A model generated the notes under the pieces. The model saw only the letters and a program-made list of their open reading frames with translations. It did not search any database and had not been told where the DNA came from. A stretch of 63,063 bases of DNA, filler included, from Methanobacteriota archaeon (lineage in GTDB: Archaea; JACRDV01): assembly GCA_024860865.1 (NCBI GenBank). It is 11 parts of 11 records of this genome, joined end to end, with 100 filler letters (N's around TTAATTAATTAA, not from the genome) between each part and the next. Parts side by side here need not be neighbours in the genome. Positions count along the whole stretch, not along the records: positions 42,510 to 45,083 come from JACRDV010000137.1; 10 more parts are not named here. One strand, 5' to 3'. The position numbers and the translations under genes are program-made. Positions 2,692 through 60,459 of the stretch are shown piece by piece; positions within the stretch are counted from its first letter, which is position 1, and each line of letters begins with the position of its first letter.

Positions 2692-3759
2692 ATGATTACA
2701 ATGAATTTTGAAAATTTATTGGACCAATATACTAAACTAATAGACTCTACACTTGAGCCTTATCTTGACGAAATGATCCTTAGCGCTAAGCTTTATCATC
2801 CATTTATCCAAGAAATTTATGAAAATATAAAAGAATTCGTAATGAGGAAAGGAAAGCGGTTGGCTTCTTGTAGCACTTTGCTAACTTACAAGGGATATAC
2901 CAAAAAAGTTGATGAAAAAATTCTTAGGGCATGCATTGGCATCGAGCTTTACCGTCATGGTATATTAGTTCATGACGATCTCGTTGATGAAGATGAATAT
3001 AGAAGAGGCGGTAAATCATTTCATGAGATTTTTTCCGAACTTTGCTCCAAAAGGTATAGAGAATCAAAAAGATTTGGAGATTCGATATCTGTTTTTGCTG
3101 GAAATATTCTCTATGCATCAGCCTTAAAAGCTCTCGCTGATGCAGGTTTTGACCAAAACACAACTAGAAAAGTCATAGAACTGTTGAATAACGATTATTG
3201 CAACGTTAATGAAAGTCAAATACTAGATCTCCTTTTCGAATTTAAAGAGCCTGATGTTGAGGAATGGTATAGCATGGCTTCAAAAAGGGCCTCATCTCTT
3301 TTCAGGGCAACAATATTAACAGGTGCAACTCTAGCAAATGCCCCTGAAAAAGATATCTCAATATTAGAAAAATGCGCCCTTCATATTGGATATTCTTTTG
3401 ATATTCAAGATGATATAATTGGAACATTCGCAAGTGAAGAACAATATGGTAGGCCAACAAGTGGGGATATACTATTAGCTAAAAAACCGCTTCATATGGT
3501 CTACACCTATCAGCTAGCAAGTTCAAATTTAGTTAAGAAAATGAGGGAAATATTAGGAAAGGAAACCAGCGAAGATATCGAGAGGATAAAACAGATAATT
3601 AGAGAAAGCGGCGCACTAGATAAGGCAAAACAAGAATCAAAAATGCATGCAAATAAAGCGATAAAATTAATTGAAGAAACTATTCTTGATAAAGAAACAA
3701 AGGAGTTTTTTACTGGCTTTATTAATTTTGTTTCCCAAAGTCTCGATTGGTATAAGTAA
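2692..3759 (+). CDS. idsA: Polyprenyl (geranylgeranyl) diphosphate synthase
   Basis: GKRL, first Asp-rich motif HDDLVD...RRG and second motif QDDII. Confidence 0.88.
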   Translation: MITMNFENLLDQYTKLIDSTLEPYLDEMILSAKLYHPFIQEIYENIKEFVMRKGKRLASCSTLLTYKGYTKKVDEKILRACIGIELYRHGILVHDDLVDEDEYRRGGKSFHEIFSELCSKRYRESKRFGDSISVFAGNILYASALKALADAGFDQNTTRKVIELLNNDYCNVNESQILDLLFEFKEPDVEEWYSMASKRASSLFRATILTGATLANAPEKDISILEKCALHIGYSFDIQDDIIGTFASEEQYGRPTSGDILLAKKPLHMVYTYQLASSNLVKKMREILGKETSEDIERIKQIIRESGALDKAKQESKMHANKAIKLIEETILDKETKEFFTGFINFVSQSLDWYK

Positions 3760-7016: not shown

Positions 7017-7116
7017 NNNNNNNNNNNNNNNNNNNNNNNNNNNNNNNNNNNNNNNNNNNNTTAATTAATTAANNNNNNNNNNNNNNNNNNNNNNNNNNNN
7101 NNNNNNNNNNNNNNNN
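7017..7116. other. Artificial contig linker
   Basis: N run with TTAATTAATTAA. Confidence 0.99.
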
Positions 7117-13228: not shown

Positions 13229-13328
13229 NNNNNNNNNNNNNNNNNNNNNNNNNNNNNNNNNNNNNNNNNNNNTTAATTAATTAANNNNNNNNNNNNNNNN
13301 NNNNNNNNNNNNNNNNNNNNNNNNNNNN
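13229..13328. other. Artificial contig linker
   Basis: N run with TTAATTAATTAA. Confidence 0.99.
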
Positions 13329-17660: not shown

Positions 17661-17760
17661 NNNNNNNNNNNNNNNNNNNNNNNNNNNNNNNNNNNNNNNN
17701 NNNNTTAATTAATTAANNNNNNNNNNNNNNNNNNNNNNNNNNNNNNNNNNNNNNNNNNNN
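17661..17760. other. Artificial contig linker
   Basis: N run with TTAATTAATTAA. Confidence 0.99.
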
Positions 17761-29123: not shown

Positions 29124-29223
29124 NNNNNNNNNNNNNNNNNNNNNNNNNNNNNNNNNNNNNNNNNNNNTTAATTAATTAANNNNNNNNNNNNNNNNNNNNN
29201 NNNNNNNNNNNNNNNNNNNNNNN
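29124..29223. other. Artificial contig linker
   Basis: N run with TTAATTAATTAA. Confidence 0.99.
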
Positions 29224-36711: not shown

Positions 36712-36811
36712 NNNNNNNNNNNNNNNNNNNNNNNNNNNNNNNNNNNNNNNNNNNNTTAATTAATTAANNNNNNNNNNNNNNNNNNNNNNNNNNNNNNNNN
36801 NNNNNNNNNNN
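36712..36811. other. Artificial contig linker
   Basis: N run with TTAATTAATTAA. Confidence 0.99.
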
Positions 36812-42409: not shown

Positions 42410-42509
42410 NNNNNNNNNNNNNNNNNNNNNNNNNNNNNNNNNNNNNNNNNNNNTTAATTAATTAANNNNNNNNNNNNNNNNNNNNNNNNNNNNNNNNNNN
42501 NNNNNNNNN
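42410..42509. other. Artificial contig linker
   Basis: N run with TTAATTAATTAA. Confidence 0.99.
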
Positions 42510-42897
42510 AATTGCTAACCCAGATAAATTGAAAGATCTCCCTTCTGGTTCTACAATAGTGCTTTACCCAGTTTTAATTGAAAAAAAGCCCTCCACAACT
42601 GCCATAGAAGCCTGATGACTTCTTCGCTAATTGATAAACTTCGTTTGCTAGTTCAAACGCTAGTATAAAGCTAAAAGGGCCCGCTTAATCTTAATTGCTT
42701 TTTAATGTCGCCTTGTATGGGTATTTTTATTTCTTGCGTAGAAAGCTCGTTCGGGTCTCGCACGTCAGAAGCTGATGCCCTGCAGTGAGCGCAGCGCAAA
42801 TTGCAGCTCCCGGTAAGCTCCTATGCTATAAACCTTGGCAGAAATTCGTGCATGCAATTAGCGTTAAAACTGACAAAGGAAAAAAATTCAGAATTTC

Positions 42898-42971
42898 ATA
42901 TAACGTCTTGCGTGTTTGCGAAGTGTGAAGCATTTGGGCGAACGCAGTGAGCCGCAAACATGCTGTTATTG
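42898..42971 (-). mobile_element. Integron attC-like site 1
   Basis: Minus strand: CAATAAC-AGCATGTTTGCG...CGCAAACACGC-AAGAC-GTTATAT. Imperfect palindrome with AAC/GTT cores, 13 nt after the restored stop of the toxin gene. Confidence 0.75.
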
Positions 42972-42984
42972 AAAGTTGCACCAT

Positions 42985-43316
42985 TCACTGCCGTAATATA
43001 TCCATTATTCTGTCGATCACTTCATTGACTTTTTCAGGTTTAAGGTTGCAACCCGATATAAGATAATCTGCTGATCAGCTGTAAAGATGCGATTGGGTCT
43101 AACATTGCTCCTTTGTTTAAGAGTCCCGGTTTGAAAGTCGCTCTCATCGATTGGGATGGCATATCTATCTCCTATCTGCTGGCTGGTTATCTGGCAGAGA
43201 ATCAGGTCGTCTCCTTCTAATTTGGCAATAACCAGAGCTGGTCGTCTTTTGGCTTGCGTTAGATCCGAGAAAGGGAAGGGAACAACGACTACATCACCTT
43301 TCACAAATCTCGCCAA
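42985..43316 (-). pseudogene. mazF: MazF/PemK toxin with a 1-nt frameshift near the C-terminus
   Basis: KGDVVVVPFPFSD...KRRPALV...QITS. The typical last helix (LKPEKVNEVIDRIMDILRQ*) is in a shifted frame after about 43048. Confidence 0.85.
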
Positions 43317-43495
43317 GCCTCGTCCTCCTCTTTGCTGAGCCAATCTTTTCTCAGAGAAGATTCGCTTGCGATTGCCGTTTCCATCCCCTGCCTCAAGGTT
43401 TTTGCTTTCAAAAAACGTATGAAATCCAATATCTCCTTCAGGAATGGCTCAGGAATCTTTTCAATTTCATTTAAGATTACTTCCTTTGTGGCCAT
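43301..43495 (-). CDS. DUF2281-family antitoxin
   Basis: LKEILDFIRFL and ASESSLRKDWLSKEEDEAW motifs; overlaps the toxin start. Confidence 0.85.
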   Translation of the reverse strand: MATKEVILNEIEKIPEPFLKEILDFIRFLKAKTLRQGMETAIASESSLRKDWLSKEEDEAWRDL

Positions 43496-43557
43496 AATTC
43501 CACCTTATATTACGTCTTAATAGTCGTAACGTTTAAAAGTTTTACTGCGGTAGTTTC

Positions 43558-43645
43558 GCCTAACGTATGCGATTATAAGACGTTGCCAAAGGCAATGTGG
43601 CGAAGGACAAGGACGAAAGCCCGTAGCATATATGCTGTGTTATCT
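43558..43645 (-). mobile_element. Integron attC-like site 2
   Basis: Minus strand: AGATAAC-ACAGCATATATG...CTTATAATCGCATAC-GTTAGGC. GTTAGGC matches the GTTRRRY consensus; internal hairpin CATTGCCTTTGGCAACG. Confidence 0.75.
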
Positions 43646-43666
43646 GCTGTTCTGGGCATCTATATT

Positions 43667-43807
43667 TCACTTATGCTCAATCTTACTGCAAACCAATTTT
43701 TCGCCTGGATATAAGGTAACTACCATAATTTTTCCCTCACTCTCTTCGTATACTATTCTTAATATTAAATCATCGGGTTTTTCAATGATTTCCAAAACCT
43801 TCTGCTT
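43667..43807 (-). pseudogene. DUF4258-like toxin remnant with an internal deletion
   Basis: KQKVLEIIEKPD-DLILRIVYEESEGKIMVVTLYP; no start codon. Confidence 0.6.
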
Positions 43808-43995
43808 ATAGCCTGAATTTCCTTCAAAGCCTTTGCAACTTCGCATGAGCTTAAGCTCGGCCCAAACTTTATTATCGTGTGCACGTGATCTCTATCAAAC
43901 CAACTTCTTTTATTTCTGCCCCAATTCTCCGCCTGTTTCTAAAAGTATTATAGCATCAGTATGAAAAAGTATGAAAATAAACTAGACCAAATTAC

Positions 43996-44397
43996 TTGAG
44001 AAAATCCGTTAGTTTTTTATCACTTGAAAGCCAATTTCTGGCGAGAAGCTTGACTAACAAATCTGATATAGAAGAGCTTGAAAACTTAATTTTAGAACTA
44101 GAAGATTCTGTAAAACAACTTATAGATGCGCTAGCTCAGCAATCGCCCCAATTGCTTGCTTATTTTGAAGACTTATTGATAAAAGCTCGTCTGCCTTATC
44201 GCAAAATTTTGAGAACTGACCTTGAAAATGCCCTATCAAAAGGGGAAATTGAAATGCTTTTGTCAAATATCGATCACTTGGCCTTAATGGCGCACTTAAA
44301 CTATCGTGAAAATAGGTTAGCACTTTTGCCTGAGTTACTAACTTTAATGCAGAAAGATATCAAAACATGTCTAGAAATAATCAAAAGCCAAAAATAA
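43996..44397 (+). CDS. Hypothetical helical protein
   Basis: 133-aa open frame with an amphipathic helical pattern; no recognised motif. Confidence 0.55.
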   Translation: MRKSVSFLSLESQFLARSLTNKSDIEELENLILELEDSVKQLIDALAQQSPQLLAYFEDLLIKARLPYRKILRTDLENALSKGEIEMLLSNIDHLALMAHLNYRENRLALLPELLTLMQKDIKTCLEIIKSQK

Positions 44398-44583
44398 TTA
44401 GATTTCAGCTAAAACTGGACAAAGCTTGCATTCCTTTGGCGGATTATCTACATCGATAACTTCAGGGCAATCTGGATACAACCCCTTGCAGTTTGGAAAT
44501 TGCAAGCTCTTTGCTCTTCTTATCATCCTTTCGCTTAAGGAGGTTCTCTTAACCTTTGGACGCTTTCTAACTCTTCTGCCCAT
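44398..44583 (-). CDS. Small basic protein with four cysteines
   Basis: ATG preceded by GGTGG; Arg/Lys-rich N-terminus and a Cx6C...Cx2C pattern. Confidence 0.6.
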   Translation of the reverse strand: MGRRVRKRPKVKRTSLSERMIRRAKSLQFPNCKGLYPDCPEVIDVDNPPKECKLCPVLAEI

Positions 44584-45083
44584 TAAACCACCAATTATTA
44601 TTCTATTCCCTTGGTAATATAGATTAATTGTAACTATTTGGCGATATGAAGTTGATTTTATTGCATCTGCTAACTAATTTAAGGCACTTTAATGGAATAA
44701 TATTTTTGCTACAAGTTAGCACATCATCAATTTTGACGATCTGATGCACTTTAATGCAGAATTCACTTCAAATGGCTAAATAGATACGATTAATTTTTAG
44801 TTTGGAAAAAACCTTCTAAATTTCAATTAACTAAAATTCTTATGGTGGGTAGTATATTAGAATTCGGTTGTAGCTGGTCTAGGCAGACATAATGCTAACT
44901 TATGAAATATTTTTTAATAAATTAAATTAAAAAAAAAGCTCATTAGCATTAAGTAATCATGGGAAATACCTGAGCGCAAATCATTGGGTTAAAGCGGAAT
45001 GTCCTGTTTGTAGGAACAAATTCTATATACCATCCAAATGGTGTCCAGGAATGGCTCCAGATTCTGTTATTGCAAAATGTAGT

Positions 45084-45183
45084 NNNNNNNNNNNNNNNNN
45101 NNNNNNNNNNNNNNNNNNNNNNNNNNNTTAATTAATTAANNNNNNNNNNNNNNNNNNNNNNNNNNNNNNNNNNNNNNNNNNNN
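45084..45183. other. Artificial contig linker
   Basis: N run with TTAATTAATTAA. Confidence 0.99.
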
Positions 45184-50252: not shown

Positions 50253-51112
50253 AAGTAGCCGACATTATGACCGATGAGATAGTTATTGTTAAGCCAACTG
50301 AGCCATTAGCTCATATAAGGAAACTTCTGCTTAAGCATGAGATCAGCAGGTTGGTCGTTGTGGATGATATGTTTAATCCAATTGGGATAATATCTAAGCA
50401 CGATATTGCGCGAGCAACCTCAAAAGGAGGGCCACCTTGGCGACGGCGACCCATTGATAGAATTCCTGCTCAGCGATTGATGACTTCAAACATTAAAACT
50501 ATAGATTTAGACCTACCGGTAAAAGAAGTTGCACAAATTATGTTGAGCAATAAGCTTGGAGGTTTACCAGTAATTGAGGATAACAAATTAGTTGGAATTA
50601 TTACGAAAACAGATATGACTCGATTCTATGCTGAAAATGGGAAATCTAAGGCAAAAATTGTTGATTTAATGACTAATAACGTTATAACGGTCAATAACCT
50701 CCATAGTTTATCCCATGTTATTAAGACCTTAAATAAACACAAAATAGCTAGGTTAGTTGTCGTTGGAGGGGTCAATCAACCTGTTGGAATTTTGACTCTC
50801 TCTGATCTATCTTTCGCTTTTCTAGAAAGACCAACTGAGGGTATACCAATAAAGAAAGTACAGTACACTAGAAAAGCTGAACACGCTGGTCGACCTATAT
50901 TTAGGCATGTTAAATCCTTTGCTTTATTAACAGCTGAGGATGCAATGACTCCAAACCCAATTACAATAAATGAGGCTCAAGATGCTGTCGAAGGAGCTGA
51001 CATAATGATTAAACGTGGAATTAGCGGACTACCTGTTTTAAATGAAAATGATGAACTTGTTGGCATAATTACAAAAACTGATTTTGTAAAAGGTATCGCA
51101 ACGCTATTTTGA
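50249..51112 (+). CDS. Four-CBS-domain protein
   Basis: CBS repeats and PPWRRRPID; TTGA overlap with the previous gene. Confidence 0.9.
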   Translation: MKVADIMTDEIVIVKPTEPLAHIRKLLLKHEISRLVVVDDMFNPIGIISKHDIARATSKGGPPWRRRPIDRIPAQRLMTSNIKTIDLDLPVKEVAQIMLSNKLGGLPVIEDNKLVGIITKTDMTRFYAENGKSKAKIVDLMTNNVITVNNLHSLSHVIKTLNKHKIARLVVVGGVNQPVGILTLSDLSFAFLERPTEGIPIKKVQYTRKAEHAGRPIFRHVKSFALLTAEDAMTPNPITINEAQDAVEGADIMIKRGISGLPVLNENDELVGIITKTDFVKGIATLF

Positions 51113-54913: not shown

Positions 54914-55013
54914 NNNNNNNNNNNNNNNNNNNNNNNNNNNNNNNNNNNNNNNNNNNNTTAATTAATTAANNNNNNNNNNNNNNNNNNNNNNNNNNNNNNN
55001 NNNNNNNNNNNNN
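54914..55013. other. Artificial contig linker
   Basis: N run with TTAATTAATTAA. Confidence 0.99.
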
Positions 55014-60359: not shown

Positions 60360-60459
60360 NNNNNNNNNNNNNNNNNNNNNNNNNNNNNNNNNNNNNNNNN
60401 NNNTTAATTAATTAANNNNNNNNNNNNNNNNNNNNNNNNNNNNNNNNNNNNNNNNNNNN
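60360..60459. other. Artificial contig linker
   Basis: N run with TTAATTAATTAA. Confidence 0.99.

Follow-up and report, generated by a model that had tools for sequence, protein, structure and literature searches.

The stretch of DNA analyzed here, referred to as the window, is 63 kb long and consists of eleven contigs of one metagenome-assembled genome (MAG) of a Methanobacteriota archaeon, joined by ten N44-TTAATTAATTAA-N44 linkers, so that it is not one molecule. The genome measures 1.54 Mb in 160 contigs, with a completeness of 92% and a contamination of 0.7%. We focused on a single contig of 2574 bp, C97 (JACRDV010000137.1; 42510..45083), which has a linker on each flank in the window and which carries a toxin-antitoxin pair set between two attC-like hairpin sites. 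Read along the minus strand, the order on C97 was a frameshifted remnant, a palindrome, a DUF2281 gene, a MazF/PemK gene, another palindrome and a radical-SAM fragment. A sequence-only reading of the window had described two imperfect palindromes of 74 and 88 nt with AAC...GTT cores, one of them ending in GTTAGGC, that bracket the toxin-antitoxin pair; both points were borne out, with the palindromes at 42898-42971 and 43558-43645 and the two genes on the minus strand between them. The starts of the two sites are 660 nt apart and no integrase gene was found on C97.

The toxin gene (43017..43343, minus strand) encodes a 108-aa protein of the MazF/PemK type, which matched PF02452 with 36.9 bits (cut-off 23.1); 45 nt separate the stop codon from the first site. 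The antitoxin gene (43301..43495, minus strand) encodes a 64-aa DUF2281 protein, which matched PF10047 with 28.9 bits (cut-off 26.5). With both Pfam families above cut-off and two small, adjacent genes overlapping by 43 nt, MazF/PemK and DUF2281 constitute a type II pair. The start codon is preceded by a leader (43496..43563, minus strand), counted from the T that follows the crossover (43563), and this leader contains a ribosome-binding site, AAGGTGG, at 43500-43506. A comparable leader, starting with G|TTATCGGAAATTGC, was present in relatives. A DUF2281-MazF cassette of 660 nt (42904..43563, minus strand), a unit that we delimit from the homology boundaries among relatives, would comprise the leader, both genes and site 1 as far as its final G.

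Site 1 (42898..42971, minus strand) is an intact, 74-nt attC-like site, CAATAAC...GTTATAT, in which the R'' box CAATAAC occupies 42965-42971 and the R' box GTTATAT occupies 42898-42904. Its stem has 11 bp with one A.C mismatch, which becomes G.T on the bottom strand; the loop contains GGCTCACTGCGTTCGCCCAAAT and the 3' spacer is AAGAC. The crossover would fall between G42904 and T42903. A homologue of site 1 was found at locus L098, and a 17-mer of the loop was common to C97 and L099. Site 2 (43558..43645, minus strand), with 88 nt and the termini AGATAAC...GTTAGGC, is decayed, and several of its stem pairs were non-standard in the alignment to the family model described below. The 3' arm of site 2 is homologous to that of another site of the same genome (C36:5912-6002; a 14-mer match), and because of this match site 2 may be a hybrid, formed when a deletion joined two sites.

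We built a covariance model (R3) from an alignment (A4) of 18 metagenome sites at 11 loci, from which C97 was excluded. R3 recognized site 1 with 44.6 bits (E 4e-7) and site 2 with 23.3 bits (E 0.015). When the whole window was scanned with filters off, the next match after these two had only 12.9 bits (E 2.4). The common design of the family reads 5'-xxTAAC-A-stem(10-12 bp)-loop with ..CTTCG..CGCCCAAAT..-stem-GRAAC-GTTAxxx-3'. Structural statistics were calculated on 46 sites, namely the 18 seeds and 28 new ones, from 96 sources after three duplicate loci had been dropped. The AAC core was present in 46/46 sites and GTT in 44-46/46. Pairing cells made up 88.8% compared to 67.2% in shuffles (0/500 shuffles reached 88.8%), in an alignment fitted to R3, which favours structure. 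All nine pairs of the main helix (9/9) changed on both sides, the stems varying with compensatory changes, and covariation was 0.539 relative to 0.158 in shuffles and at most 0.09 in slid controls. The 5' spacer between R'' and the stem was 1 nt in 46/46 sites, while the 3' spacer between the stem and R' was 5 nt in 33, 4 nt in nine, 3 nt in three and 6 nt in one. The alignment had no L'' bulge column, the loop motif (..CGCCCAAAT..) was conserved, and the sites were 65-113 nt long. Since the position of a bulge gave an ambiguous answer by hand, top and bottom strands were set by homology boundaries and fold energies. The strand opposite the genes (bottom) folded better in 45/46 sites, with a mean of -14.7 as compared to -12.4 kcal/mol. 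For the two C97 palindromes, the plus-strand DNA folds had z-scores of about -2.3.

The boundaries of the cassette were examined with the MazF protein as query, which retrieved 80 metagenome loci at 68-80% identity. An antitoxin homologue was located upstream of the toxin in 80/80 of these loci. The related units start at a G|TTATCGGAAATTGC junction, and the hairpins upstream of it were unrelated between loci. The downstream hairpin was common within groups, one comprising C97 and L098 and another L099, L119 and L121, and the homology of the units ended right after GTTA. These boundaries indicate that, as in integrons, the crossover would take place at the core that is 3' when the genes are read in sense, and the toxin-antitoxin unit, judged by where its homology starts and stops, behaves as a cassette. 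In their cores, covarying stems, bottom-strand stability and breaks at G|TT, the sites behave like attC as far as sequence comparison and predicted folding can tell. The same module was also observed in another setting: at L106 (about 2700-3500) a toxin-antitoxin unit is situated between two copies of a tRNA 3' half ending in GGTTCGAGTCCC...CACCA. This arrangement looks like a tRNA-targeting integrative element and another way of moving the same module.

We compared the sites with classical attC by means of a proxy model instead of the attC_4.cm of IntegronFinder. The intI1 gene of plasmid R100 (NC_002134) was used to collect 80 intI1 loci from species genomes, in which a strict rule-based scan identified 15 non-redundant classical attCs; nine short ones were aligned (A1) and used for a model, R1. 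R1 found 104 sites in 81 loci with 24-74 bits, all of them on the strand expected for an array upstream of intI1, and from these 104 class-1-associated attCs the model R2 was built. Neither C97 site was matched by R1 or R2, with filters off, on the window or on the contig. Over the whole window R2 gave two unrelated matches with E>3, while on C97 alone it reached 5.2 bits (43558-43601) and 3.8 bits (42898-42931), both with E>1 and covering the R boxes only. At R3 sites in 19 loci R2 scored at most 10.7 bits; conversely, R3 found 0 sites in 35 class-1 integron loci (640 kb). The two models therefore showed no cross-detection. The R100 aadA1 site and the 15 seed attCs had the classical geometry, with spacers of about 5 x 5-6 nt and a bulged L''. 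Unlike these, the family sites have a 1-nt 5' spacer and mostly a 5-nt 3' spacer, lack the L'' extrahelical bulge and carry a conserved loop motif. In other respects they are like the attCs of integrons and of clusters of attC sites lacking integrases (CALINs): they are imperfect palindromes with inverse RYYYAAC...GTTRRRY cores, they occur in arrays directly after co-oriented and mostly promoterless genes, the crossover would lie at G|TT, the cargo is of the toxin-antitoxin and defence type, and most loci are without an integrase.

In the accessible part of the paper that reported integrons in Archaea in 2022 (Ghaly et al. 2022, PMC9668308), these were found in about 1% of genomes with tools tuned to classical attC, the archaeal CALINs mostly lacked IntI, and the nine assayed archaeal attCs had classical 5-nt spacers and the L'' bulge (Data S9). 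The 1-nt/5-nt geometry is not described in that part of the article, whose supplement gives sequences for nine of 539 attCs. The partly accessible literature from 2023 on about archaeal attCs, CALINs and integrons likewise yielded nothing on a variant archaeal site.

When 151 archaeal genomes were searched, R3 sites were found in 17/151 at E<=1e-3, the genome studied here included, while R2 had 0 matches in the 151. The 17 site-bearing genomes span many families, with the AAC/GTT cores and the loop motif in common. This genome itself held 11 sites at E<=1, plus a twelfth at C36:5912-6002 (39.5 bits). The sites are 74-93 nt long and lie singly or in pairs between archaeal housekeeping genes: next to Ftr on C53, EMG1, Rpr2 and S19e on C77, AlaRS on C38, HflX, NikR and KaiC on C54, NfeD and SMC on C128, and pyrBI on C36. 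Two further site pairs bracket toxin-antitoxin modules, DUF2281 on C70 and MNT-HepT on C36. These neighbours bear on the possibility that the palindromes arose by chance or that a bacterial contig was mis-binned into the archaeal MAG. C97 is only 2.6 kb long and has no marker gene, as that explanation would have it, but the E-values of 4e-7 and 0.015, a GC content of 0.379 on C97 compared to 0.365 in the genome, and eleven further family sites beside archaeal core genes indicate that C97 is not a bacterial stray, and we regard this explanation as refuted. The archaeal host named in the sequence-only reading was thus upheld by the sister sites that adjoin S19e, Rpr2, EMG1, Ftr and AlaRS.

Sites were also found in arrays in other genomes. 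On G005:C15 (L196, 1-12000), 8-9 sites each follow right after co-oriented open reading frames (ORFs). The cassettes encode HD, cytidine deaminase, PD-(D/E)XK, PNP_UDP phosphorylase, DUF6236 and unknown proteins; they look like defence genes, and at the array end there are an N6/N4 DNA methylase gene and a pPIWI-associated-nuclease-like gene. A second array, on G079:C4, has three sites and a glyoxalase-family gene. On G070:C31 a PIN-toxin unit between two sites is set between V-ATPase genes and kae1-bud32, and the sites of G001 accompany RmuC, MNT-HepT and a restriction-modification unit. The family cargo was mostly toxin-antitoxin, restriction-modification and defence-like genes. In the sampled genomes the family is ten-fold commoner than the published figure of about 1%, and it resides in archaeal chromosomes beside core genes. 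In this genome we also noted, at C77:3990-4050 (L178, about 840-900), a tRNA 3' fragment (..GGGTTCAAATCCCGGCGGCCGCACCA) together with a mini AAC/GTT palindrome, TATAACGGACGTTAT; these features form the upstream edge of a small cassette cluster adjoining EMG1.

The same observations bear on whether the hairpins move at all. Structured elements that do not move, for example terminators, operators or hairpins that stabilise mRNA, passed on vertically together with the adjacent genes, would explain why each site lies directly after a gene, and a palindrome at 43512-43589 in the leader is a possible operator. On the other hand, the AAC/GTT cores are invariant, the loop motif is common to 17 genomes of many families, homology breaks exactly at G|TT, the arrays contain unrelated genes, and the better-folding strand is the one opposite to the mRNA (45/46). 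We consider this explanation most improbable.

Another explanation would be hairpin repeats of a single-strand HUH (Y1) transposase, as in IS200/IS605, RAYT and REPIN, that have genes caught between them. The substrates of Y1 enzymes are folded single strands, and the family resembles REP/REPIN with RAYT and the ends of IS200/IS605 in being extragenic hairpins acted on in that form. The remnant 5' of site 2 (43667-43938, minus strand) is relevant here. The sequence-only reading had called it a DUF4258 remnant, for which there was no Pfam support; its 59-aa and 74-aa frames had no Pfam match, and the frame at 43765-43938 had a weak match to the IS200-type Y1_Tnp (PF01797; E 1e-3, 19.6 bits, below cut-off; 17.4 bits in a genome search). 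One intact Y1_Tnp gene was present in the genome, on C7. However, there was no R3 site at E<=5 at the C7 transposase locus, and Y1_Tnp (E<=1e-8) occurred in 2/17 site-bearing genomes compared to 18/151 overall. Moreover, copies of REP/REPIN and IS200/IS605 share sequence, whereas this family keeps only the cores and the loop motif, and its stems covary between copies. IS200/IS605, RAYT and REPIN families use tetranucleotide guides, while the termini of this family are AAC/GTT. Taken together, a Y1 origin of the sites is highly unlikely.

We then considered the enzyme that could act on the sites. The IntI model TIGR02249 (cut-off 265 bits) was passed in 0/1 for this genome and in 0/401 archaeal genomes. 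All strong matches were two-piece (for example, 132.8 + 102.1 bits in G001) and skipped model positions of about 176-236, the IntI-specific insert. This genome carries two decayed copies of one recombinase of this kind, a 174-aa catalytic domain with a frameshifted N-terminus on C40 and a C-terminal fragment of 55-66 aa on C36, which adjoin family sites or a shared 21-nt motif. An intact homologue of 276 aa in G015 was 84% identical over the 174-aa catalytic domain. Compared to IntI1 by BLASTP, the candidate had 33% identity, and the alignment had a gap where IntI carries its insert. It is like IntI in being a tyrosine recombinase with an N-terminal SAM-like domain, but unlike IntI it lacks the IntI-specific insert and never reaches the 265-bit cut-off. 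In IntI this insert contacts the extrahelical bases of attC. In the metagenome loci (+/-3 kb), tblastn with IntI1 returned only short C-terminal fragments (L146, L120/L124, L106 and L099). A related observation concerns C36:6110-6140 (L002:1440-1470), where the C36 integrase fragment loses its homology to C40 at TATAAC (G|TTATAC on the opposite strand). The break adjoins a short segment ending in a family site, and from the position of the break it looks as if a cassette had entered the integrase gene through a secondary GTT site.

Two conserved sequences accompany this recombinase. A palindrome, TTAAACGnn...nnCGCTTAA, followed by TAGTTG|TTAxxx-xCAAT, was found upstream of at least 14/25 integrase loci of the subfamily (L224-L247, e.g. 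L224:83, L229:2450 and L234:89; also L195:2060-2120), and it covaries. As with IntI and attI, a conserved site with a GTTA core is thus located just upstream of, and divergent from, the candidate gene, and on its sequence and position this site is a candidate attI. In G089 a 272-aa integrase gene is divergent from an attI-like GTTGTTATACGAAAT, which is followed by a 109-aa ORF and then an R3 site (42.5 bits), an arrangement that by analogy corresponds to a complete integron. The 349-aa integrase gene of G001:C32 is followed by a restriction-modification unit on the same strand and two sites. Many integrase genes of the subfamily lie 130-380 nt from the contig start and two contigs end exactly at ...GTTA, which is what population variation beginning at attI would produce. 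The second conserved sequence, a 21-nt motif (CAACWATAAGTTAACAGAACC), was present in 25/401 archaeal genomes at 36 places, as compared to 1 for a reversed control; the places in this genome are C53:251, C77:4743, C36:6394 and C40:7891(-), and others include L209, L213 and L216. It directly follows the GTTATAC/GTTATAT of the last site at C53, C77, G079, G063 and G025, and at C36, C40 and G077 it is found 50-140 nt beyond the remnants of the integrase. The motif adjoins an integrase only in this genome (G000; C36 and C40), in G077 and, in a diverged form, in G015; a conserved motif of this kind 3' of the candidate gene, in three genomes, is a difference from IntI. Read on the opposite strand, the motif is similar to the attI-like site in its left arm, and it may be an array-end or docking site. 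XerS/difSL and XerH/difH are single-recombinase Xer systems with the site beside the gene, dif being a single-copy duplex site of 28-31 bp. The candidate resembles them in its Xer-like size and in the conserved palindrome immediately upstream of its gene. It differs from Xer/dif in the number and kind of sites, a single genome having 12 hairpins, 74-93 nt long, that bound cassettes, and in the contig breaks at the attI-like site. That the IntI-like, Xer-sized recombinase without the IntI insert is the cognate enzyme of the sites is a tentative assignment, to which we give slightly less than an even chance.

Based on these observations, we consider it probable that the two palindromes are one intact and one decayed member of an attC-like family that marks the 3' ends of mobile cassettes. 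The 660-nt DUF2281-MazF cassette would have a decayed cassette on each side. The bottom strand, complementary to the genes, is predicted to fold into a hairpin with a 7-8-bp R box, RYYYAAC/GTTRRRY, at its base; a tyrosine recombinase would exchange strands at G|TT, and cassettes could thereby be cut out, integrated and reordered in the manner of an integron. The enzyme would most likely be the IntI-like, Xer-sized recombinase of about 270-290 aa without the IntI-specific insert, not a classical IntI, and in relatives its gene would adjoin the conserved attI-like site. Since only decayed integrase copies are present in this genome, its cassettes probably no longer move, or do so only with an enzyme supplied in trans. 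The C97 locus itself is best read as a frozen remnant, because site 2 is decayed, the cassettes on either side of the pair are pseudogenes and neither integrase copy is intact. In chromosomal integrons a toxin-antitoxin pair stabilises its locus, and the pair on C97 probably does likewise.

Several results count against this interpretation. Recombination was not observed, and we infer it from the G|TT homology breaks and the bottom-strand stability in 45/46 sites. In the contigs of public runs X1-X4 compared to C97, no joint across the cassette was found; one 1711-nt contig of run X1, which may be the run of the source sample, spans 42865-44574, and other contigs match the loop of site 1 only and then diverge, with ends of the GTTAGGC/GTTATAC type, so that by their sequence they are relatives of site 1 present in the runs and not excision products. 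Site 2 is weak, with an E-value of 0.015. As the classical-attC proxy R2 failed on the sites, the name 'attC' is applied to them by analogy. A dif-type site or an operator is an alternative reading of the attI-like site. A scan of 17 integrase loci (L224-L240) with R3, filters off, gave 0 sites, and no integrase was found in 19 other CAACWATAAGTTAACAGAACC loci examined. In most genomes integrase and sites are on different contigs, and the G015-type integrase (E<=1e-40) was present in 8/17 site-bearing compared to 20/134 site-less genomes, a comparison in which related genomes are non-independent.

The main live alternative is an ordinary integron remnant, in which the sites would be divergent classical attCs of a CALIN, of the sort that standard tools detect, and the canonical IntI would be unsampled or act in trans. 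Many copies do have canonical R boxes, such as GCCTAAC...GTTAGGC at C70:689-768, the published archaeal CALINs are mostly without IntI, and the genome is 92% complete. In addition, a classical attC with an R2 score of 34.4 bits lies right behind the gene of a MazF homologue (69% identity) at L169:1018-1080, which indicates that the same toxin-antitoxin family travels in ordinary integron cassettes too. Opposed to this are the 3.8-5.2 bits of R2 on C97 and its absence from the genomes in which R3 found 17 carriers, the failure of either model to detect the sites of the other, a 5' spacer of 1 nt in every site where the nine assayed archaeal attCs are classical, and the lack of any TIGR02249 match above cut-off. 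An ordinary remnant is therefore unlikely, though not negligible. Since geometry and model recognition both fail and no IntI with the insert was found, the sites are, on these sequence criteria, not classical attC. The integron-type assignment of the sequence-only reading is thus retained for cassette-bounding hairpin sites placed after co-oriented genes and dropped for the classical geometry and an IntI with the insert. Its proposed checks came out in the same divided way: the class-1 proxy failed, which by that reading's own refuting condition of no covariance-model hit speaks against classical attC, and the family model succeeded; the bottom strand was the more stable one, without an L'' extrahelical bulge; and the genome yielded 12 family sites and no IntI above cut-off. 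Likewise, two sites less than 4 kb apart on a contig without an integrase would make C97 a small CALIN-like cluster by the rule of >=2 sites within <4 kb, if the sites count as attC, but they are not recognised as classical attC.

Integrons are the textbook gene-capture device of bacteria. The family shares their logic, namely a folded single strand, AAC/GTT cores and arrays, with another geometry and without a classical IntI. It may represent a self-contained archaeal gene-capture system parallel to the integron, with an insert-less recombinase, its own attI-like site and hairpins without the extrahelical-base geometry, a proposal that we hold tentatively and place a little on the doubtful side of even. 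In such a system a single difference would show itself twice, as a domain absent from the protein and as a feature absent from the DNA, and its relation to bacterial integrons could be that of a sister or of an ancestor; if so, it is common among the archaeal genomes sampled yet largely invisible to attC models. Should the insert-less IntI-like recombinase be the partner, the family would offer a direct test of integrase-site co-evolution, insert versus extrahelical bases, and would open to searches a new class of mobile cassettes in Archaea, with toxin-antitoxin and defence genes as the main cargo. For C97 alone the meaning is more modest, that of an integrase-less, partly decayed two-site remnant.

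The remaining features of the window were minor. A scan of C97 against 4227 Rfam families (E<=10) gave noise only, and both sites were without a match. A blastn-short search of the genome with both C97 sites found no repeats at the sequence level. A 54-nt element at 44668-44721, with a perfect 7-bp inverted repeat TGCTAAC...GTTAGCA and without an inner stem, was scored by R2 at 6.6 bits (E 1.2) and was not matched by R3. The 12.9-bit R3 match mentioned above (E 2.4) is at 50674-50723 on the minus strand, TAATAACA...AACGTTATTA; it covers R boxes only and is probably due to chance. The linkers occupy 2578-2677, 7017-7116, 13229-13328, 17661-17760, 29124-29223, 36712-36811, 42410-42509, 45084-45183, 54914-55013 and 60360-60459, and any feature that seems to span one is an artefact. 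On the other side of the cassette, 3' of site 1, an N-terminal radical-SAM fragment (CNLRCAHC; 42671..42820, minus strand; PF04055, E 2e-3, 18.8 bits, below cut-off) is broken up by stop codons and probably represents the following cassette in decayed form.

A further palindrome, ACGTCTTA...TAAGACGT (43512..43589), predicted by folding, overlaps site 2 and the leader and could be a toxin-antitoxin operator or another decayed site. Its segment 43512-43583 was considered as site 2 and rejected, because the family model R3 places site 2 at 43558-43645. The whole 1.54-Mb genome has just two copies of the 12-mer ATATWACGTCTT, at 42898-42909 and 43507-43518, and these form the plus-strand 5' edges of site 1 and of the palindrome at 43512-43589, respectively.

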